Origin: Protoeuglena noctilucae
Lineage: Eukaryota
DNA: 64,000 nucleotides
NCBI GenBank assembly: GCA_958009085.1
Contig: OY253671.1
Location: forward strand, 744,001-808,000
Direction of reading: 5' to 3'
Shown: one piece after another, positions 1 to 29,612 of the stretch
Position numbering within the stretch: position 1 is the first letter of the stretch
Layout: every line of letters starts with the position of its first letter
Position numbers and translations under genes: made by a program
Notes under the pieces: model-generated
Seen by the model: the letters and a program-made list of their open reading frames with translations, nothing else
Told to the model about the DNA's origin: nothing
Database searches by the model: none

Positions 1-1120
1 CATCAAGCGCGAGGGGCTGGGCCTGTCTAAGTGAGAGGCTCGAGGCGCGCCACGCCTGACGTGCGCCGAGCATGCGGTCGAGTACATCACGCGAACCCAC
101 CTGCTCCTTGGTCGCACTGCAGGCTCGACGTGAGCTTCGGGGACGACTTTGCCCCGGCAGCCCTCTCGGGCATGGACGTCAAGGCCCTCCATGTCTTCCT
201 CTCCAAGCTGGGATACAAGCTGACGTTTGGGGAGTGCCAGGTTAGACGACAGTACCCTTGCCGATGTGATTTGCCGCCCCCCCATTCACGCCGTTGATCG
301 CCTTGCCGCCTGGTCCCCGCCACGCAGCAGCTCTTTTCGCGTCTGGACGTCAACGAGGACGGAGCGCTGTCGGAAATGGAGGTCCGCCTGAGTCTCTTTC
401 CATGGGACCGGGTGAGACCCTCGTGACCCTCCGCCACGACGTCCCGTGCCACGTGTCTTGGCCAAGTGCTGTCAGGTCAGCGTGCTTCCCTGCTACCCGC
501 AGGTGTTCCGATCGGAGCTCTGGGAAGTCTACGTGGACCGTGCGTTCGACATCCTCGACGAGAACCGTAACGGGACCGTCAGCATCGACAAGGTGGTCTC
601 GGTCATGGCCAGCATGCTGCAGCGGACGGGGGCGGGCAACTCGCACTTTGACGAGTTTGGATGGGAGCATGAGGGGGAGGGCGGGGAGAGGTCGCTGGTG
701 GAGCGGGCAAGAGACATGCTGCGGTGAGGAGGGTAGCGTTGGACGGGTAGGGGACCCTTGAGACCCTACCCGATCGCCAGAGGCACCCACACGTGCTCTG
801 CCGCCCGCAGGGAGGTGGGGTCCGACGCGTCTGGCAACTGGCGCCTGACGCGGCACGACTTCCACCGGGCACTGACGCCCGTGGACATGGTCGACGACCT
901 CGTGGGCTACGACCACCGCAAGGCCATCGCCATGCCAGGCGCGGGCGTCCTGGCGACCCCCGACGCAGCGCCGATGGCCACACGGGACGTGGCGCCCTCA
1001 GGCGACGAAAGCGACAGCACCCAGGAAGCGGGACCCGACTGGCCCATGTGGTCGTCTTTTGACTACACCGGGGACGCCGACTACCTCCTCACGCAGACGA
1101 ATGTGGCCCGCGGCGACTGA
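1..1120 (+). CDS. 3' part of a multi-exon EF-hand calcium-binding protein (CDPK-like C-terminal region); 5' end lies outside the window
   Basis: Spliced exons give EF-hand loops LFSRLDVNEDGALSEME and RAFDILDENRNGTVSID. GT..AG introns; TGA at 1118-1120. Confidence 0.6.
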
Positions 1121-1293
1121 AGGCCAGCCCAGGGGTGCGCGCCTCCCAGTCCCACTTTTCCGTTCGTTCGTTTCAGTGCCGGCGGCCAGTTGATCGCCGC
1201 GACAGTCATCGCACCTTCAGGCCCCAGAACCGGCCAGTAAGTCTTAGCTGTAGCGCCTGCCCATGTCTAGCCCTCCCTCTTTGGCCAATCTGC

Positions 1294-1963
1294 CTAGGCC
1301 TGGATCAATCCCTCCAGCTTCCGCATATGAGCGATGCGGTCCTGGATGCCGGCGACCAACGCGTGTCCCTCCAGCACGCTCGTCACCCTGTTGGTACAAC
1401 AATAGTGCATGAGAGTGCTGTGACGTCGGCCACGTCACGCGGGATGCTCCAAGCTAATGGCTCACCAGTCGCGGAAGGCCCTTGCAGCCGGGGACACGGC
1501 GGACACGGACGGGCTCTTAAACTCGTCCAGGTCGGCGTATTTGGCCGCCTTGGCAACCTGTTTGGGTTTGAGCTGCGCGATGTCGAACTCTCTGCACTGC
1601 TTTAGGAACGTCCAGTCACTGAGCGCCATCATCGCCGTCTTCCAGTCCTCCTTGCGCCCATGCAGCGCCATGACCGCGTTCAGCACAGCGCGGAGGGCTG
1701 CGCTGGGGTTCGCGTAGGACTTCATCTCGCTGATCTCCGCCTTGGTCAGGTTCTGGAGCGCCTCGGCTGCCTTCGATTGCATCTCAGCGACACGACTCAT
1801 GACGGGCTCGATCTCCGCACGGATGGCGTCGCGCTCCGCCACCAGCGCGGCCTTCTGCGCACAGGTGACATGCGTTGGGCCTGAGGGACCCAGGCAGAGG
1901 GCAGAGCGGGAGGAAAGCATTGCCATTGCAGAGATCTCGAGTATTGGCACTCACGTCCGCCAT
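1294..1963 (-). CDS. Stand-alone dynein heavy-chain stalk tip / microtubule-binding domain (MTBD) protein, ~163 aa, 3 exons
   Basis: Exons 1963-1955 (MAD), 1854-1466 and 1387-1294 join in frame through GT-AG introns. AEALQNLTKAEISEMKSYANPSAALRAVLNAVMAL..WKTAMMAL..FLKQCREFD..VSPAARAFRDWV follows the dynein MTBD consensus (AL..L.K.DI.E.KSY..PP..V..V..AV..L..W..A...L...F...L..FD..VS.AA..L..WV). Confidence 0.8.
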
Positions 1964-2129
1964 CGCGACCGCTGTTTCACTCGTCCCTCCAAGGGGGCGT
2001 CTGTTAGGCCTACCAAAAGCTGGGTCGGTTGACTGAGGGAAAGTAATTGCGCTTCCCTGCTTCAGTCCGTGCAGTGGTCTCGCATCAGCCGTGCAGGAAG
2101 CGTGCGAAGGCTCTGAATACGCGCAGGGC

Positions 2130-2153
2130 CAGTCTGACCTTCAGTCTGACCTT
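2130..2153. repeat. Perfect tandem duplication of the 12-mer CAGTCTGACCTT in the divergent intergenic region
   Basis: Copies at 2130-2141 and 2142-2153, read directly from the sequence. Confidence 0.9.
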
Positions 2154-2292
2154 GTCAATCACCATTCTGGCAGATCAGACCGGACTGAGCGACAAATAGC
2201 CTCCAGGCGGCTTTAATTATGGCAGAAGGCTACGGTAGAGGCTTGGCGTCGCCCGTTCGTCCGTTGCACGGGCATGGGGACAAGCTGGGCGC

Positions 2293-5200
2293 ATGGGCTG
2301 CGGTGCGAGCCGGCGCGTCGCGCCGCTTGTGGTCGAGGTCGACCCTGGCGTGCTCCATCTGCTCGTGGTGAGCTTGCTTAATCGTTTGCCGGCCCGCGCA
2401 CGCAACAGCATGCAAGCCGCATGCGCCAGCATGCAAGTTCGTCTACTCGCCTCGTTTACTGAGCGGGACTCGCTTGTTTCTTCCACGACAGGACGCGAGG
2501 CTTGTGACGAACATGACTGTGTTAACCGCACTATCGGCCAGCGGCGCAACGGTCTATCGCCTGCGCGAGTTCCACGCGTCTGGGCGCCTCCGAGCTCTCC
2601 TCCGCGACCTGGGCATCCAATCGGAGATGGCGCTGGCCGCCATCGAAGAACAACTCGACATGGCTGGTACCGACGACGTCAAGAAGCCGCCTAAGGCGCC
2701 GCGGGCTGCGGAGCTGAGAGCCGAAGCGGTCCCGTTGGCACTCCCCACAGCTCCCGCAGCCCACAGCGAGGTCGCCGCTGGCGAGGTGGCCGCGGGCGAA
2801 GCGGTGATTTCAGTGCGCAACGATGGCTCCAAGAAGATGGCGGCATCTCGCGCGACGTGGCGCCAGGAGGCCGCAAGGGTGACGTCGCAAGTGATGCACC
2901 GAGTGGCAGACACGAAGGGCCAGGTCCAGGACGGCGCAGACATGCCGGGTCAGGCTCAGGACACGCTGGCTCCCCTCTCGGACGTGCTCAGCGCTTCGGG
3001 CGTCGCGGAGAGTCTGCAGGGTTTGATCCAGGTGAGCTGGCAGGCCCGACAGCACACTGCTGGCCAGTCGCATGTCGTTTGGCCGTGTAGCTTATTTCCA
3101 ACAACCTGGTCTCGACTGGCCCGCGCAGTCCAACACGCTGTTTAAGGACGTACAGGACGTGCTCCTCTCCGCGGCGTCGCACGTGCTGCAGTCCCTAGAG
3201 CACGCGCCCCTGGTGGCGCCCATCGCCAAGCTGACGTCCAACATCCTCGCAGGCGTCGCCCAGGTGAGAGCGGGCAGTTATTGTGAACGCGCGCACGTGG
3301 GCGAGTCTCACCAAGTACTATAACGCCTCTTGCGACCGTCCTCGCCAAGCACTCTCACGCTCCCTGCGACTGCCCTTGCAGGCCATGGAGGTCAAGGCGG
3401 TGCTGGGCGACTTCGCTGCGATGGTGCGCACTGTGACGGGGGTGCTCGTGAAGGCCTACCGCGTCCTGGACAGCAAGGGAGAGGCCCTGCGCGACCTCCA
3501 CGGCGTCCTGCAAGAAGCGGAGGAGCTGGTGGGGCAGGTCCGCAACCGCACGTGGGTGTGGCGGTTCCTGCGGGCGGGGAAGGACATCGACGGCATCAAG
3601 GGCCTCGGGGACAAGCTGATGGGCGCCGTGCACCTGCTGACGGCGGACACTGCGCTGGAGTCCGCGGCGGACATCAAGGACGTCCAGGCCCGCCTGGCGC
3701 GCATCATGGAGGAGGGGTGCCTTGCGTCGCAGCAGGAGCTGCGGGCGTCGCTGGCGGCGGCGGCGGGGGTCAGCGACGCGGGGTCGCTGACAGAGGAGCA
3801 GGTGGCGAGGGTCGTGGCGGACCCCCAGGCGATGGCGAGGGTGTTCCAGTCGCTCTCCGCGGGGGAGAAGGTGATCGTGGCGCAGGTGCAGAGGGAGGGC
3901 GCCGAGGTGCGGGCCGCCGTGGCCGTGGTCGCCTCCCGCATCGACCTGCTGATGGAGCAACTGGTGGACATGCTGCCGCCGGAGGTGCGGCGGCTGCCGG
4001 AGCGCCTGCGGGAGCTCTGGGCGGGGGAGGCCGGGATGGAGCTGTCGGGGCCGTCCGTGGCGTGGAGTGTCTTCGCCGAGGTTCTGCCGGACCTGCCCTG
4101 CGCGGAGGGGCTGCGGGAGTGGGCGGCGAGCCACCTCCGCGTGGCACTGGAGGCATTCCTGGACGCCGTCGCGCGGCCCGCACTGGCGCCGGACGGCACC
4201 CTGACCGCCGTCAGCGTGCACGTGCTGGCCAAGCGGGCGCAGCTGGCGCACAAAGTGCCCAAGGACGCAGTGGACGTGCGGATGTGCTTCCTGTTCCTGG
4301 AGGCGGGGGCAAAGGCAAGGGGGGACCGGGCACCGCGGAAGGACCTCTCACGCGCCGCGCCCAGCCGGCGTGGTATGGCGGCCGTCGGGGCGACCGTCCT
4401 GGCGTCGCGCGTCGCCGGGGCCGGTGATGCCAAGGGCGACGGCGCTGGTGGTCTGCCCGGTTCCACTGACGGTGCCATACTGAGCGCCTCGGAACGAGCC
4501 GAGCTGTATGCGGCCCTGGCCCCTTGCGACTTTGCGGGGGACGCCTTTGCACGGAGCACCGGGTACATGGAAGGGACGCGGGCGTGGCTGCAGGAAGAGG
4601 TGGTTTCGTGGGCCCATGCGCCGCCCTCTGGGACCAACAGCTCCATGTTCCTCCTCATGTCGCTGCCGGGCATGGGCAAGACGGCCGTGAGTGCTTCCCG
4701 CCCGTCTGCGTGCACCAGCATATATGATCTGAGTCGATCGCTCTCGTAGCAACCTCTTTCGCGGTCTCCGCAGTTCGCGGCGCACGTCGCCGAGGAGCTC
4801 ATGGCGGAGGACGCTCTGGCCGCGGGGCACTTCTGCCGAGCGGGGGATGCCCTGCGGTCGGACCCTCGCGCCGTCGTCGACAGCCTCGCCTACCAGGTAC
4901 GCTGCAACTGCGCTGGCCGCTTGCTGCTTTCCTGGGACAATCAATCGCATGTTTCATGTCACGACGTGGACGTGTCGCGAACTGTGCGCCCATCTAACTT
5001 TTACTTCCGCCGCAGGTGGCTCTCTCGGTCCCCGGCGCAGGGTCCCTCATCCACGCGGCGCTCAGGGGCCTCCCCGAGAACGCCACGCCGTCGCAGGCGT
5101 GCTCCAGGTGAGCCGCAGCGCCGTCTATTGATGATCAAGCGCTCTCTCCGCTTCATGGCGAGTCTCGCAGGACCAGCGTAGCACAGCGACGCCCTGCGCC

Positions 5201-8200
5201 CTGCGCCCGTGCCCGCAGCTTGCTCGTGGAGACTCTGGCATCTGCGCCGGTCCCTGCCAAGCCGATGGTGGTCATCATCGACGCTCTGGACGAGGCTGGC
5301 GCTACTGCGGCCGCCAACGGCCTCCTGTCCCTGGTTGCTGGGGAGTTGACCAAGCTCCCTGCCTGGGTCAAGCTGCTGGTGCGTCTGGGGACGGGTGCAG
5401 TGACTCGCATGCGCTAGTGTTGTGCTTGACACCTATGCCCGCCGACTGGTGGCTGGGATGGGTGGCTGCCCATCGGCAGCTGCCAACGCTGAGCCACGAT
5501 TGGTGTCCTGGCCCGCAGGTCACCACGCGCCCCGAGCCCTTCATCGTGAGTCGTCTGTCGGCCTTCGCGCCCGTCGTGTTGGCCCCGGACGAGCGTCGCA
5601 ACCGCGAGGACGTCCGGGCGTTCATCGAGGGGTCTCTGCGCAGGGACGGACTCACCGAGGAGGAGCGGGCGGGCGCGGCAGCCGCCATCCAGGAGCGCAG
5701 CGAGGGCGTGTTCGCGTACGTCGCCTCGGTGGTGCGCATGGTGCAGGAGGGCGGCAGCCTCGGCAAAGTGACGGTCGGGCAGCTACCAACGGGCCACAGG
5801 GCGCTCTACACGGCGTACCTGGACCGACAGGCGAGTGACACTGTTGAGCCCGTCGCGCCGGGCGTGTGGGCGCTTTCGATGCCGCGCGCGCTGCCCCCTG
5901 TGACGCGTGCCAGTCGCACCGCTCCTGTGCGCAGTTTGGATCGGGTGCGCTGGGCGAGACGGAGTGCCGCGTGGTGCGGAGCTGCCTTCTCCCGGCCATC
6001 TGCGTCGCCCGGGAGCCGCTGAGCCCCGGAGACCTCGCGAGGATTGCCCAGGCGTGGGCCAGCCAGCCGGGCTCGCTGGGAGCGCTCTCGGAGGCCCAGG
6101 CGCGGCAAGCGGTCACTGCTCTGGGCTCGCTGTTCCCCATCGGGACTGACGGGCTCGTGCGCCCCTTCCACAAGTGAGTGACGAGCAGAGGCAGACCGCA
6201 GCTGGGAACGAGTCGTGAAACACTTGGCAGGAACGAGACCTGTGATTTGTGAGCTCTCTCAACACCGACCGTGCATCACTTTCACCCTCTCAGGTCTGTG
6301 GTGGACTGGCTGCTGGAGGACTCGTCTTCTCACTGGCACGTCACGTTGGCGCAGGGTCACCTGGCGCACGCTTGCGCATGGGCCCCGCTCCTCTCGGCGC
6401 TCTCCGCACGGACGGCCGCCGAGGGGCCACCCACCGCGCCCGGGTATGCCCTGCGCCATGGGCTGTTCCACGTCCGATGCGGGGACGTCTTTATCCAATC
6501 AGACGACGGCTGTGTGGCAGACGAGGCTCTCGGCACAGGCGCACAGGCTTGGCCCATGTGGGACAGCCTGAGCGCCCTGTGCTCCTCGATGGCCCTCGCG
6601 CAGGCAATGGCGGTGGAGGAAGAGCTGGGGGAGCTGGTGAAGGAGGTGATGGTGGCAGCAGAGCTGCTGGCGAGGGTCGGGAGGGGCGTGGAGGCGGTGG
6701 TGGAGATGCAGGGGTTTTTAAGGGCCTTCTCCCGCATCCTTCTCGAGGCGCCCCTGGCAGTCGGGGACGTGGCGGCGCTGTCACCTGTGGGGTCCCACCC
6801 GCACCTGGCACACGCCGCGCTGGGCGGCGGGCCACTGATGCGCGTGGCACGTGGGATGGACCGCTTCCCAGAGAGCCTGGCGCTGACGGGCCACGAGGGC
6901 AACGTGTCCGCCGTGGCGTTCGCCTGGGACGGCGCGGTGGCCGTCACGGGCGCGCACGACAAGTCGGTGCGGTCGTGGCGCGTGGCCACGGGGGCGCCGT
7001 GGCAGACGTTTTCTGGGTACATGGGCCGCATCACCAGCTGCGTGCTGCTGCCTGGGACGCGCGTCGGCTGCGTGGGGTCCAGCAACATCCGGACGCTGCG
7101 GGTGTGGGACTGGGCGACGGGGCAGCTCGTGCATTCGCTAGAGCGGGACACCCACACGCCCTCGCTGAGCCCGGGGTCGCTGGCCCCGCTGGGCCACGTG
7201 CTGGCGTCGGCGGGGATGGAAGGGCGCACGCTAGTGTGGGACGTGGACGCCGGGGCGCTCCTGGCCACGCTGGAGGGGCACATGGGGCCCGTCTCGTGCC
7301 TGGCGTGGGTGGTGGGGCAGGACGAGGCCAGGCGGGCGTTTGCGGCGGGGCGCGCCCCGGAAGGGCCCTTGCTGCTCGCGACGGGGGCGGAGGATGCGAC
7401 GGTGCGGGTCTATGACGCGGTCGCCGGTGCGGCCGTGGCAGTGCTGGGGGGGCACCACGGCCAGGCCATCACGTGCCTGCTGACGTCTGCAAACGGCGCC
7501 ACGCTCGTCTCCGCATCCCTGGACGGCACGGCCGCGGTGTGGGACCTATCGCCACCCGCGACCTTCAACAAGCAACGCACGGTGCGGCAGGGAGCGCCCG
7601 TGCGGGCTGCCGACCTGCACGCGGCCGGGGTCGTTCTGGGACTGGGTGACTCGACTGGCAACGTCACGCTGTGGGACGTGCAGACCGGGGAGCGGCTGGC
7701 GGACCTGACCGGGCACGGGGACGTGGTGTCTGGGGTGGCGTTCGTGCCATTTCCTGGGACGTCGGTGGTCACGTCCGGGTGGGACGGCTCCGTGCGCATG
7801 CACGCCGTGCCTGGCGGTGAGCTGCTCCAGGAACTCGACGTCGGCTCTGATCCCGTCCTCTGCCTCACCCTGGGGCCATTCTCGGAGGGGAGGGGTGTCC
7901 TGGTCGGGTGCGGCACGGCAGATGGCGCCGTGCGCGTGTGGGGCCCCGTGCCCGAGCGACCGGCGGCTGGGGCGGCTGCGGGGGGCCGCCGGGGTCCCGT
8001 GGTGGTTCTTGCTGTTTCTGAGGATGGGGCGCTCATTGTCACGGGGCACGAGGCGGACAGGGACGAGGGCGGGGCTGTGGCGGTGTGGGACGTGGCGACG
8101 GGGCGGGGGGTGACACCCGGGCGGCACGAGTCCAATGTCCGGGCCGCGGCGTTTGCGGCAAATGGCGACGCGATCGCGTCAGGGGGCGAAGACGAGACCG

Positions 8201-9201
8201 TCTGCCTGTGGCGCCTGGCAGACCAGGGGAGCGGGGGGCGTGCCTGGGAGGCCGCGGCGTGCGTGGCGCTGGGGGCAGAGGTGGCGCAGGTGTTGTGGGG
8301 CCCTGGGCCGTTCGTGGAGGCGATGATAGCCGCCGCCACTGATGACAGGAGGGTGCACCTGGTGCGGGGTGCGTCCGGGGAGGTGCTGTGGGCGAGCGCG
8401 GCGCTGGGCGGGCTCATCGGCTCCCTCCGGTGGGCGCTCGGCGGTGCCGCATTGCTGCCCGTCGCGTCGGGGGACTCGTCGCCCATGCCCCTGCTGGACG
8501 GGCGGACGGGCCAGGCAGCCGCGCTCTTCTCGGCCCACACCGACCGCGTGCAGTGCGTGGCTGTGTCGGACGACGGCGGATGGGCGGCGACGGGGAGCTC
8601 CGATCGGTCGGTGCGTGTGTGGCGGCTGGCGCAGGACGGAGAGGGCGGGGCACCGACGGCGGGGCTGGCGTGCACACTCGAGGGCCACTCCCACTTGGTG
8701 TTCGCGCTCGCCTTCGCCCCCGGCCGCACCGATTTGCTCGCTTCCGGGTCTTTCGATTCAACAGCCATGGTCTGGGACGCGTGGCGGGGCGTGGCTGTCG
8801 CGCCGGCCCTCGCCTGCGCTGGCCCCGTGGGCTCGCTCGCCTTCTCCCCTGACGGCGCGCTGCTGGCCACGGCGGGCAGCCCCGGCAGCGACGCCACCAA
8901 CGAGGGCCGCGTGCGCGTCTGGCGGGTCGCCACCGGAGACCTCCTCGGCGTCGTTGATCTGCAGTGCCCATGCTTCCTCACCCCCATCCGCAACGCTCCT
9001 AATCCGGGGCCGGGAGGAGCCCCGGGCGCCGGCCGGTGGCTCCGAGTGCACGGGACCACCAACGCCCGGCACCTCGGCGTCATTCACTTCCAGTTCCGTG
9101 GTCCCGGCCCCCTGCGACCGGAGGCCTCTGCCCTGGCACGCGCCGCCACCATTGCGGCGGGGGAGGCGGCTGCAGTGATTGTGGAGATTGAGGCAAACTA
9201 G
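2293..9201 (+). CDS. NLR-like STAND protein: MGCGAS N-terminus, MLKL/MCA-like helical bundle, NACHT NTPase, WD40 repeats (~1,950 aa, 10 exons)
   Basis: Exons 2293-2367, 2492-3031, 3129-3263, 3382-4686, 4774-4896, 5016-5107, 5219-5378, 5519-5830, 5935-6173 and 6294-9201 splice in frame. NACHT motifs: EGTRAWL, SLPGMGKTA (Walker A), HFCR..DPRAVVDSLAYQV, MVVIIDALDE (Walker B), LPAWVKLLVTTRPE, SEGVFAY, VAREPL, PFHKSVVDWL. Many GH..V..D..VRVW WD40 repeats in the last exon. Confidence 0.9.
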
Positions 9202-25700: not shown

Positions 25701-27449
25701 TCAGGGGTTCAGGGCCCGCCAGCAGGCGATCCAGTCCTCCATGCCGTCCGCCAGGCGCATGAAGTACTCGTCCACCTTGCTGAGCTTGGCGCGCACCTGC
25801 TCGGCCAGCTCCAGGTAGCACGAAATGGCGTCCACGGCACGTTCGGAGAAGCGCACCTGCAAGACAGCACGGGATGCGAGCTTTCCTGTTGTGGATCCTA
25901 GACAGTCTGCATGGACTGGGGAAGGGACGCACAGGCACCGGCACCCGCCCTGCCTTCGCCGACCACCCACCGCCCCAACCAGCACGCGACCAGCACGCAA
26001 CGCCTCGCCACCCCACGCACCTGCTGGAAGAAGGGGATGATCTCCTCCTGCCAGAAGATGCCCTTGTACTCCTTGCGGAGGTTGTTGAAGGGGTTGGAGG
26101 CCTTGGAGTGCCACAGGTACGGTTTGCCGCTCTTGACACCGTACCCCAGGTGGTCGCACACCACCTTGACGCACCAGCCGGCCCACATGTCGTCGTAGCG
26201 GCCGATGGGCTGGCCGTCGCCCATGAGCCCGAAGTACATGCACGGCCCGATGAGGTCCCTGCATTGGGCAAACAGACAGGGTTCTGACGTCAAACCCTTG
26301 CATGGCCATCGCCGGCCACCTTGCCAGCCCAACACTGTCGCCGGGCCAGTCATCACGGCGCAGGGATCGGCCGCCGCAGCCTCGCACCTGTTGAAGGCCA
26401 GGTTCATGCCGCACATGGGCATGAGGGTCCCCTTGGGCACGGTCATGACGCAGTCCACGTAACGCGTGTTGCGCTCGAGGGGCTTGACCATTTGCGTGGG
26501 GGCGTCGTAGTCGGGGATGTTGAGCCACAACCTGCAGCGGCGGAGGGCGCGGCCAGACTCGCTCAGACCCGCCCGCTCGGACCAAGCGCTGGCGCCGCGC
26601 TGGCAGCGCCACGGGCGGCCAAGTCGGGTGCTGTGCTGCCCGGGCCGCACCCGTGGGAGACGGCCGTGGGGACGCCCTCGCGCAGGGAGAAGGGGTAGCC
26701 GCGGACGAAGTCGGCCCCCTCGGCGAAGGGGTCGTACAGGGTGTTGAAGTAGTACGGGGTCGCGGGCGTGAGGAGGTTGATCATGTGCTGCCGCAGCACG
26801 TTGATGTCGTTGCCGGAGGGGTCTTTGGCGACCCAGCAGTCGTCGTCGATCGTGAAGATGAAGCGCTTCTTGGACATGAGGAAGCCGAAGCAGCGGCAGG
26901 CCGAGTCCTTGAAGGAGATGCAGCTGGCCTTGTCGCCGAGGATCTTCTCGATGTCCGGTCGCTTGTAGAGCTCGTAGTCGAAGCCATCGGGCACGCGGAG
27001 GGGCCGCGCGGGGTCGCCGTCCTGCACAGGCGGGGCGTGCTCTGCGACATGACAATGCCAGGCTGGCCGCGAGTGCGGCGTTCAGCCGCGCGCGCGTCCC
27101 AATCGCGACGCAGCAATTCGATTTCTGGTGTGAAAGCCAAGGGATGGGATGCCAGGGGCCTCGCAAGGCGGCGTCCCAATCGCGCAGCTGCCGTTCCCGG
27201 GCGCAGGCTGCACCGAGCGGCCGCGCGTCCAGACCGTCATCCAGCGTCTCGGACGGCTCCCGCAGTCCATCTGCATTGCATGGACGCTGAACCGCGAGCC
27301 GCACCGCCGTACCTGGATCACGATATCAGGTGGAAGGGCTGGAAGAAGGGCCGCCACTGCTCGAGGAAGTCCAGATCCCGGATCGTCGGGATGACGATGT
27401 CGACCTGGTCATACAGCTCCTCCAACTTGACAATCGGCGGCGAGACCAT
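25701..27449 (-). CDS. RGP: Reversibly glycosylated polypeptide / UDP-arabinopyranose mutase (GT75)
   Basis: [109 protein letters not shown]. Confidence 0.97.
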
Positions 27450-27816
27450 TTTTAGGCGGCGGGGTGCGCCACCGGGCCAGGGAGGCCAGGGAGCGTGGGC
27501 AGCAGGCCAAAACTCAGCACGATCCCCAGTGCGATGACGACGCCGGCGACAAGAGACACAGTGCTGACAGAACGTGGCACGCCACGAACGAGGCGCGGAG
27601 AGCAGGCCGCGCGGCGATCCTGGATCTGGCGCGCGGCATGCCAGCACGCATGAGGCCGCGGGGCTCCCACGAAGGCGATCAGCCCACCTTGGATCTCCAC
27701 ACGTCACTTTTACCTGCGCAGGTCGCGCTGACGGCGACTTGGCCGCGCATGGCTCGTCCCGGACGGTTGCGGGGATGCCAGGGCGGGCCGTGCGGGCGGG
27801 CAGCCCGTGGGAACTC

Positions 27817-29612
27817 ATGACGCTGGCGAATGTCATCCGCGCCATGCTCCTGCTGACCTTTCTTGGACTCTGTGCCATCCTGTACCTTTTCCATCACCCC
27901 ATTGACGACGGGACGTCGATTGTCCTCGAGTCGGAGCGCATGCGCAGCGTGATAAGGGCCGATGCGAACTCACAGCGACAGCGATGCAAGGCCAAGTATG
28001 ACACGATCGAGGGGGACCTGCTGCTGGAGAGTATGCAGGTGAGATAAGCACATGAAAGCCAGCTCCCCGCTCCTTGTCACATTGGCGATCCTATTCAGCC
28101 TTTCCGCACTGCAACGCCCCAGAACGAGCGCGTGTTCATCGCTGCGCTGCTGCGGAACAACGAGGCCATCATGGAGACGTGGATTGCCGAGCTGCTGCAC
28201 CTCATCACCGACCTCGGGCGGGAGAAGGTCTTTGTGTCCATCGTCGAGAACGACAGCCGCGACGGAACGCGGCAGGCGCTGCGTGACCTCGACGTGACGC
28301 TGCGGCGGTACAACATCGCCCACAGGATTCTCCTGGACGACGAGACGGTGCAGCCTCGCTACCGCCAGGGCGACCGGCGCCAGGCGAGTGCTGGGAGCCC
28401 CTGCAGTGGAGCACAGCAGTGGTGCAAGATGCGTCTCCCCGGGGAGCACAGCAGTGGTGCACTTTGCGTGTCCTGGGCCGTCGACCTCCTCTCGGCTTAG
28501 GCCCAGGCCTCCCTGACCTCTCCCCAGGGCTTTCGCGTCGAGTACCTGGCCAAGTTAAGGAACCTGGCGTTGGAGCCCCTGTACGCGACTGCAGAGCACC
28601 CCACGCTGGACAAGTTCACGCGCGTGGTGTTCCTCAACGACGTGCTGTACTGCAAGGAGGACATCCTGAAGCTCCTGTGGCACGGGGCTGACATGGCGTG
28701 CGGGTACGACTACTCCGGGTCCGACTTCGGCACCACCTTCTACGACGCCTGGGTGTTCAGCCCGGGGAACTACACCGTGCGGGACGAGGAGCGGCTGATG
28801 ATCCCGCCGACGGGTGAGCGGGCACGCATAAAGAGGGGGACAGGACTGCTGATCCCTCCAGTGTTGGGATACCACATGGAAAGCGATTGCCGACCCCGAC
28901 AAGTAGCATCGGCGGTGCCTGGAAAACCTCCCTGCTCGTGCACGCAGAGGCCCAGCAGATGTTCCGGCGGTGTCCCCCGGCCCCCGCGTCGTGCCAGGCC
29001 AAGCAGAAGGAGCCGCGGCAGGTCTTCTGCTGCTGGAACGGCGCCGCGGTCATGAAGGCGTGGCCCTTCTACGCCGGGGTGCGCTTCCGATGGGGTATGC
29101 CCTTCCGCACGTGCCAGAACTCGGAGTGCTCCCAGCTGTGCCTCGACTTCCACAAGCTGGGCGCACACAACATCCTGGCGGACCCCACGGTCCAGGTCAG
29201 CACCCGCCGGGCAGCCGAGGGCCAGGGTGGCTGCGGAGGCAACCGATAGACCCCCTGTGGCATCAGGGGGTTGGATGGCCAGCCGTGACAGGCAGAACCC
29301 CCATTTGCTGTCCCGCAGTTCGCGTACAACTACAGAGACTATCACTCGGTGTTTCGGAACAACGTGGAGGGGTACCGTCTGGCTTCCGTGAAGGCCCCCG
29401 ACTGGGACCCGAAGTGGCCCGAGACGTGGAGGTGCTGCGAGCTGACGGGGGCCGGCCAGCACTATGTGGACCTCGTCAACTGCCGGCTCGAGTTCCTGGA
29501 GCAGTACCAGTGCCCACCCGCGTTGCCGCCCCGCGGGTGCCTCAACTACGAGAACATTTACCCTCAGGGGTACGTGTCGCTCGACCCAAGGACCTGGGGG
29601 TCCCACGGCTAG
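27817..29612 (+). CDS. CAP59/GT69-like (cryptococcal mannosyltransferase 1-like) type II membrane glycosyltransferase
   Basis: N-terminal [84 protein letters not shown]. Confidence 0.88.
28408..28461. repeat. 19-bp direct repeat GGAGCACAGCAGTGGTGCA (2 copies) inside an intron
   Basis: Copies at 28408-28426 and 28443-28461. Confidence 0.85.

Follow-up and report, generated by a model that had tools for sequence, protein, structure and literature searches.

Work on the microtubule-binding domain (MTBD) of dynein has dealt almost entirely with its place at the tip of a 4000-residue motor, or with truncated laboratory constructs. An earlier note on a stretch of 64,000 nucleotides of Protoeuglena noctilucae DNA (the window, in what follows), made from the letters alone, had described at 1294..1963 a complete small gene encoding only this stalk tip. 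The locus raises the questions of whether such a gene is a transcribed unit of its own, how its product is related to the dynein heavy chains, and what a stalk tip without a motor could do in a cell.

Gene structure, transcripts and neighbouring genes

The MTBD gene has three exons on the minus strand and runs from the ATG at 1963 to the TAG at 1294-1296. Its parts, and the spacer beyond its stop codon, are as follows.

1964..2069, minus strand: 5' leader, taken from RNA contigs ending at 2052, 2057 and 2069 in three runs; it has no ATG inside
1955..1963, minus strand: coding part of exon 1, ATG GCG GAC (M1-D3), from a reading of the sequence and its translation
1855..1954, minus strand: intron 1, 100 nt, GTGAGT...GCGCAG, phase 0; RNA joint 1854/1955 in runs X9, X11 and X12, absent from run X3
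1466..1854, minus strand: exon 2, whole, between the two introns
1753..1854, minus strand: start of exon 2, the predicted stub of stalk helix CC1, residues 4-37 (AlphaFold2 helix 4-37, pLDDT 86-96)
1492..1752, minus strand: MTBD core of six short predicted helices, residues 38-124, no flap insert (Pfam, phmmer, AlphaFold2, Foldseek)
1466..1491, minus strand: end of exon 2, the predicted helix H6/start of CC2, residues 125-132 and two bases of W133 (AlphaFold2, translation)
1388..1465, minus strand: intron 2, 78 nt, GTGAGC...CAACAG; RNA joint 1386/1465, with the cut shifted one place to the right
1294..1387, minus strand: coding part of exon 3, the remaining CC2 stub (residues 133-163) and the TAG at 1294-1296 (translation, AlphaFold2)
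1121..1293, no strand: spacer of 173 bases between two convergent stop codons, crossed unbroken by one RNA contig per run (piece 810-1386 continuous)

When the three exons were joined by script, the resulting 492 nt translated letter for letter into P0006, a 163-aa protein from a public collection (sources JGI/IMG and Logan) that shares a 90% cluster with the unspliced ORF of the window, in exact agreement with the ATG, two canonical introns, TAG and 163 residues of the earlier description. Intron 2 splits the TGG codon of the invariant W133. The ATG at 1963 is the first in the RNA-covered leader, and the single other ATG between it and the in-frame stop at 2143, located at 2085, is out of frame and past the contig ends. 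The GC content of the gene at codon positions 1, 2 and 3 is 0.63, 0.43 and 0.86, respectively, that of its introns is 0.60 and 0.55, and position 3 in the last exon of the neighbouring gene reaches 0.87, within a window that is GC-rich throughout (0.64-0.74 in 2-kb steps). The MTBD gene carries the codon bias of its genome. A tblastn search of the whole window found no second copy of P0006, all other matches having E values of 1.1 or worse.

The stretch 1100-2300, or part of it, was present in 15 of the 24 listed runs, which came from six studies and of which five were recorded as RNA, and it was complete in 6 runs from two studies. Contigs of X9, X11 and X12 (metatranscriptomes of three samples from one study) and of X3 (a DNA-type run, coded organism A) were compared with positions 700-2800. 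The MTBD gene is spliced: both introns were removed exactly in all three RNA runs, where one contig per run skipped 1855-1954 and 1387/8-1464/5, and the skipped pieces read CT..AC on the plus strand, corresponding to GT..AG on the minus strand. In X3 both introns were read through in one piece by a 3288-base contig that matched 700-2800 with zero differences. Neither an upstream exon joint nor a loose end was found in the RNA contigs of X9, X11 and X12, whose ends at 2052, 2057 and 2069 are a hint to the start of the transcript, because assembled contigs cannot establish true transcript ends or strand. The nearest RNA signal upstream was a weak separate contig of the divergent neighbour, with 2320-2366 joined to 2491-2605, seen in X9 only. 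The earlier note had looked to RNA reads for a self-contained transcript, as opposed to exons belonging to a longer heavy-chain transcript or to a misassembly. The three spliced RNA runs with contigs stopping at 2052-2069, the missing upstream joint and the continuity of the X3 contig over 700-2800 all came out in favour of a transcript of its own.

On the downstream side, the RNA contigs extended from 1386 to 810 into the convergent neighbour, with the plus-strand intron of the latter (723-809, GT..AG) removed. Given that these contigs are unbroken over 1121-1293, the two transcripts meet or overlap at their 3' ends and were fused during assembly, and the unbroken contig does not show a single transcript. 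Run X13 (coded organism B) contained 0.32 of the sampled words of window 1100-2300, and its organism could be a close relative carrying the MTBD gene, or carrying the neighbour only.

As had been proposed, genes unrelated to the MTBD gene lie on both sides of it. The downstream neighbour is a convergent plus-strand gene ending with a TGA at 1118-1120. Its exons at 298-724 (+) and 810-1120 (+) contain two EF-hand-like loops that remain below threshold on single exons, scoring 17.9 and 19.9 bits against cut-offs near 25. The position of this EF-hand neighbour beside the MTBD gene may or may not be meaningful; EF-hands and an MTBD are fused in two proteins from elsewhere, P0056 and P0027. The upstream neighbour is a divergent plus-strand ORF with its ATG at 2294, beginning with MGCGAS, which we take to resemble a start for N-myristoylation and palmitoylation. 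The region 2294-9198 (+) contains a sub-threshold MLKL_N-like stretch (26.7 bits against 27) followed by a 982-aa WD40 ORF at 6253-9198. Pfam found no dynein family in 150 of the 163 stop-to-stop ORFs of at least 170 aa in the window, a scan that reached up to 59.9 kb and left out 13 ORFs beyond about 59 kb. The gene content of the window is Viridiplantae-like (RGP/UDP-arabinopyranose mutase, PPR), and its RGP/UDP-arabinopyranose mutase gene lies in several exons at 25704-27893 (-). Identity of the RGP exon to named algae and plants does not exceed 78%, so that the protein collection contains no close named relative of this lineage, and the list of matches lends no support to an affinity with Micromonas. 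In GC content and habitat the alga may resemble Prasinoderma coloniale, whose genome has 69.8% GC and for which 6 DHC proteins and a suspected hidden flagellate stage are reported (PMC7455551).

The encoded domain and its divergence from dynein heavy chains

The whole 163-aa protein matched the Pfam family MT (PF12777) over residues 30-138 with 31.5 bits against a cut-off of 24, exon 2 alone giving 26.3 bits, and the match spanned profile positions 92-207 of 344, which places the protein in this family. No Pfam family other than MT was found in it at E 0.01 or better. Among PDB sequences, phmmer matched 32 distinct ones at E 0.001 or better, and each is a dynein heavy chain by name or by alignment within the stalk region, including two with other depositor names. 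The best matches were human DNAH6 (1.4e-13), the Chlamydomonas inner-arm chain 8glv_Fm (2.2e-13) and bovine DNAH6 (4.3e-13), followed by I1-beta (7.6e-13) and DNAH2 (about 1e-11; 8e-12), while cytoplasmic and outer-arm chains were weaker, at E values of about 1e-4 to 1e-3. The closest solved relatives of the protein are thus flap-less inner-arm dyneins. According to a structural study, an insert between H2 and H3, the flap, is carried by some inner-arm dyneins (10.1101/590786). The alignment of the 163-aa protein with DNAH6 is free of gaps over about 100 residues, indicating that the flap is absent from it.

AlphaFold2, run on the single sequence without an alignment, gave a model with a pLDDT of 90.9 and a pTM of 0.85. 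Its helices, assigned by DSSP, comprise residues 4-37, then 41-48, 55-67, 74-81, 84-91, 100-110 and 119-123, and finally 125-146 and 148-162, so that the predicted protein has the six helices H1-H6 between CC1 and CC2 that characterise the dynein MTBD fold. The short helix, MTBD and short helix named in the earlier note reappear here as helical segments 4-37, 41-123 and 125-162, with MT as the only Pfam family. A Foldseek search of the PDB with the model returned 35 matches at E 0.001 or better, of which the rows inspected were dynein chains with TMq values of 0.55-0.90. DNAH10 of the bovine sperm axoneme gave a TMq of 0.90 (rmsd 1.7), cytoplasmic dynein-1 0.87, 3ERR 0.83, the whole-stalk structure 5AYH 0.79, 6RZB 0.73 and 2RR7 0.62. 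The TM-scores of the predicted hairpin against low- and high-affinity structures do not tell the registry apart, and a homodimer prediction, with a score of 0.00 (mark 0.32), speaks neither for nor against a dimer. The computed pI of the core, residues 38-124, is 9.1.

Motor features are missing from the product. With MT as its only Pfam family and no further exons in the RNA contigs, the 163-aa protein contains no AAA+ modules, linker or tail, as the earlier note had claimed for the AAA ring. The predicted stub helices, of 34 residues at the N-terminal and 38 residues at the C-terminal side, fall short of the long stalk of a dynein motor, and both prolines at the stalk-MTBD junction are missing.

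How far the protein has moved away from the heavy chains was judged from an alignment of 186 MTBD units. The consensus consisted of 45 positions, each with an agreement of at least 60% among 102 dynein-like (single-unit) rows. The window protein keeps 28 of these 45 positions, compared with medians of 37 for the dynein-like rows and 26 for the 83 rows from units of multi-MTBD proteins, and with 25-42 for seven full-length heavy chains; 13 of the 102 dynein-like rows also score 28 or less. Residues kept include K41, E46, P53, W74, F86, D94, S124, A126, A127 and W133. Among the replacements, PP has S54 in place of its second proline (96% P in dynein-like rows), the H3 'AK' has M78 in place of its lysine (K in 86%), DKD.I has become D-I-A-Q-L (DKD to DIA), C131 is replaced by R and Y140 by G. 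The residues replaced at PP, 'AK' and C131 are 86-96% conserved in dynein-like units, and some of the changed residues may contact tubulin. The hinge prolines at the stalk-MTBD junction, found in 63-64% of dynein-like rows and in 12-20% of multi-unit rows, are replaced by E27 and D149. In a maximum-likelihood tree of the 186 units (126 columns), the window protein has a long branch, of 0.85 where the median is 0.37, and no supported (starred) group contains it, although its nearest rows by path are dynein-like. With a long branch and no supported placement, the case for inner-arm descent is drawn entirely from the similarity scores.

Compared with the flap-less inner-arm heavy chains (DNAH6, 8glv_Fm, I1-beta/DNAH2), the algal protein therefore has the same domain (E 1e-13 to 1e-11) and the same predicted fold (TMq up to 0.90), with no H2-H3 flap in either. 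However, this domain lies at about residues 2770-3300 of the 4100-4500 of an inner-arm chain, whereas it makes up the entire 163-aa product in the alga, and a stalk with roughly 100 residues per helix, joined to the AAA ring, contrasts with stubs of 34 and 38 residues. Identity is only about 30-35%, with hinge prolines and several near-invariant residues changed in the alga.

Relatives in other organisms and motor-less MTBD proteins

An exhaustive phmmer search over 1.84 billion representatives yielded 736 proteins with E values of 0.001 or better, of which 57 reached 1e-10 and 3 reached 1e-30. Among the 149 best non-self matches listed, the best identity was 44% over part of the domain and at most 38% over the whole domain. 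No orthologue was found in this search, and a word-indexed search with exon 2 recovered the window's own cluster only (1 of 86 candidates). Because only this cluster and no close phmmer match were recovered, the gene is limited to one species in public data. A scan of metagenome contigs gave two loci, L001 (41-244) and L002 (4001-4201), with 32-34% identity over part of the MTBD, and one of them sits on a 52.8-kb contig.

The matches were then considered by architecture, with an MTBD-like unit counted when it scored at least 15 bits and covered 60 or more query residues. Two to five tandem MTBD units without AAA modules were present in 41 of the 149 best non-self matches. The three proteins with the top whole-protein scores were 746, 894 and 1150 aa long and were matched in 5, 6 and 4 stretches, respectively, and Pfam found 2-5 MT stretches and no AAA family in the multi-unit proteins. 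Examples of tandem arrays are P0007, P0009, P0011 and P0012; the P0009 array is a transcriptome ORF marked complete, and two other arrays are NCBI entries, one of them a 'hypothetical protein'. The tandem units were observed to be separated by low-complexity linkers. Other motor-less matches are fusions: P0056 (209 aa) consists of an EF-hand pair and one MTBD, P0027 of EF-hands, TPRs and an MTBD, and P0016 of an MTBD, DUF4062, an AAA_16-like stretch and TPRs. The source names of these motor-less MTBD proteins are 'hypothetical protein' or none, and no function is given. The treatment of the algal gene as a singular oddity in the earlier note is thus no longer tenable, with 41 of 149 matches being multi-unit without a motor and others being EF-hand or TPR fusions, and motor-less MTBD proteins seem to form a wider, unannotated class. 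On the tree of 186 units the 'multi' label requires 22 changes, so that this class is not one clade there, and the window protein lies outside any starred set.

Single-unit matches gave a different picture. In a domain-by-domain rescoring, the best single units (76-62 bits) came from P0023, P0028, P0032, P0031, P0038 and P0039. An alignment of P0031 with DNAH2, DNAH1 and Chlamydomonas inner-arm chains extends from the stalk into the following AAA modules, and the best single-unit matches are, as far as their sequences tell, pieces of heavy chains. P0031 itself (1211 aa) resembles a heavy chain from the stalk onward, but its score against DNAH2, over about 800 residues, is no more than 240 bits, which marks it as a very divergent or degenerate C-terminal part of a dynein. 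A profile search for small MTBD-only proteins gave 114 matches at E 1e-8 or better among 8000 scored candidates. Eight of these 114 were inspected and set aside, since all 8 resemble heavy-chain pieces, with long CC1/CC2 flanks or a cut inside the domain. P0050 (183 aa, 36% identity) has a start similar to that of the window protein. The nearest clusters in the ESM Atlas, short PF12777 proteins mostly from molluscs and rotifers, were taken as gene-model fragments. The search for MTBD-only proteins elsewhere, suggested in the earlier note, was therefore successful for motor-less arrays and fusions, but the small matches inspected (8 of 8) were apparent heavy-chain pieces.

The algal protein shares the lack of AAA modules with the other motor-less MTBD proteins (P0007, P0009, P0011, P0012, P0056, P0016 and P0027), and it departs from the consensus to a similar degree (28 of 45 positions, against a median of 26 of 45). 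The hinge prolines, both lost in the alga, are kept in 12-20% of the other motor-less units. None of these proteins is orthologous to it, with identities of 22-38% and no joining to it in the tree, and most of them have several units or extra domains, whereas the algal protein has just one unit, flanked by coiled-coil stubs that are longer and balanced. Engineered isolated MTBD constructs (the seryl-tRNA-synthetase fusions 3ERR and 6RZB, and the dynein-c MTBD 2RR7) likewise consist of an MTBD and a short coiled coil without a motor. By contrast, they are laboratory truncations of heavy chains, whose registry is fixed by the fusion partner as described in 10.1101/590786, while the algal gene is a natural one with its own promoter region, introns and stop, and with free hairpin ends on its product. 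No published description of natural motor-less dynein MTBD proteins was found in the full-text literature, most subscription journals being outside its coverage. The domain and its fold are textbook knowledge; a free-standing, spliced and expressed single-unit MTBD gene is a new form.

Origin, function and alternative explanations

In our estimate it is somewhat probable that the locus is a real, expressed, lineage-restricted dynein stalk-tip gene, likely descended from an inner-arm heavy chain and likely encoding a non-motor microtubule-associated protein. Its product would be an antiparallel hairpin, in which about five heptads of CC1 lead to a six-helix MTBD and about five heptads of CC2 fold back. 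The gene most likely stems from the stalk region of an axonemal heavy chain of the flap-less inner-arm type, and would then have evolved independently for a long time. Its divergence, taken with a frame and splice sites that are still intact, a codon bias like that of the genome and a confidently predicted fold, suggests that it has long been a gene in its own right whose fold is constrained. The occurrence of MTBDs without AAA modules in other proteins makes a non-motor role plausible, and the protein may act as a small microtubule-associated protein docking at the tubulin intradimer site of dynein. In 10.1101/590786, the MTBD is described as binding the tubulin intradimer interface and as 'permanently primed', with the affinity switch consisting mainly of a movement of H1/CC1 with the stalk registry. 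With no AAA ring to shift CC1 relative to CC2, and neither hinge proline left, affinity would depend on the registry adopted by the free hairpin, and so be fixed rather than cycled by ATP. A protein bound constitutively at the intradimer site could serve as a mark on microtubules, protect them, or compete with motors.

That the exons are part of a longer gene or that the locus is misassembled would be an objection to a stalk-tip gene, and the ends of the transcript are beyond proof by contigs. However, the 3288-base X3 contig equals 700-2800 without a difference, and the stretch is complete in 6 runs from two studies. A longer gene would also have to pass an upstream gene on the opposite strand (from 2294) and a convergent downstream gene (ending at 1120), the in-frame stretch before the ATG at 1963 contains no ATG before the stop at 2143, and no dynein family occurs in the 150 of 163 long ORFs scanned. 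We find such an artefact hardly credible. A transcribed relic, left over from a dynein heavy-chain gene by partial duplication or erosion and spliced without having a function, would account for the restriction to one species in public data, for the loss of several near-invariant dynein residues and both hinge prolines, and for the long tree branch. Nevertheless, at no more than 38% whole-domain identity, a neutral remnant is expected to have lost its frame, splice sites and codon bias, whereas here the frame is intact, both introns are removed exactly and GC3, at 0.86, is like that of the neighbour. The pLDDT of 90.9 from a single sequence also speaks against a relic, and the stubs match in length (34 and 38 residues), giving in the model a closed hairpin and not a ragged fragment. 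A relic is therefore decidedly unlikely in our view, and the exact splicing, the lack of an upstream exon, the GC3 and the confident fold bear out the earlier reading of a motor-less, self-contained gene that is not a pseudogene.

The remaining alternative accepts a living gene but not a microtubule ligand: the hairpin could have been kept to bind another partner, such as soluble tubulin or a factor for the assembly or modification of dynein, and would then act as a regulator or decoy. Surface residues are changed in H2, H3, H4-H5 and H6, and it is just as conceivable from these changes that tubulin is bound weakly or not at all and that the partner is another one. Methylation of ciliary dynein MTBDs through an assembly factor, as reported in PMC10835030, indicates that non-tubulin proteins recognise the dynein MTBD. 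On the other side, the hydrophobic core and the most invariant positions are kept, the basic core (pI 9.1, residues 38-124) suits the acidic tubulin surface, and no result points to any partner. We regard a repurposed hairpin of this kind as not very likely, and return to the stalk-tip gene with a microtubule-associated product as our preferred reading.

A broader proposal can be made from the tandem and fused forms, namely that the dynein MTBD is a free-living microtubule-binding module that has been repeatedly cut from heavy chains in several eukaryote lineages and is used alone, in arrays of up to five, or fused to calcium-sensing or scaffold domains. We put this forward tentatively, as an idea with rather more chance of proving wrong than right. 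If true, it would define an unrecognised class of microtubule-associated proteins acting on the motors' own binding site, and the 163-aa protein would represent it in its smallest natural form, as a stalk tip that works constitutively and without ATP and gates the access of dyneins or kinesins to particular microtubules.

A natural gene that makes only the stalk tip, retains its predicted fold and is expressed in the sea represents a natural experiment on the MTBD without a registry set by the ring. Together with the tandem and fused forms, it hints at cells using the tubulin footprint of a motor for non-motor purposes. The 163-aa protein of this marine green alga is thus a candidate non-motor microtubule binder, and if it does bind microtubules, it would also be a small natural tool with which to probe or block the dynein site.
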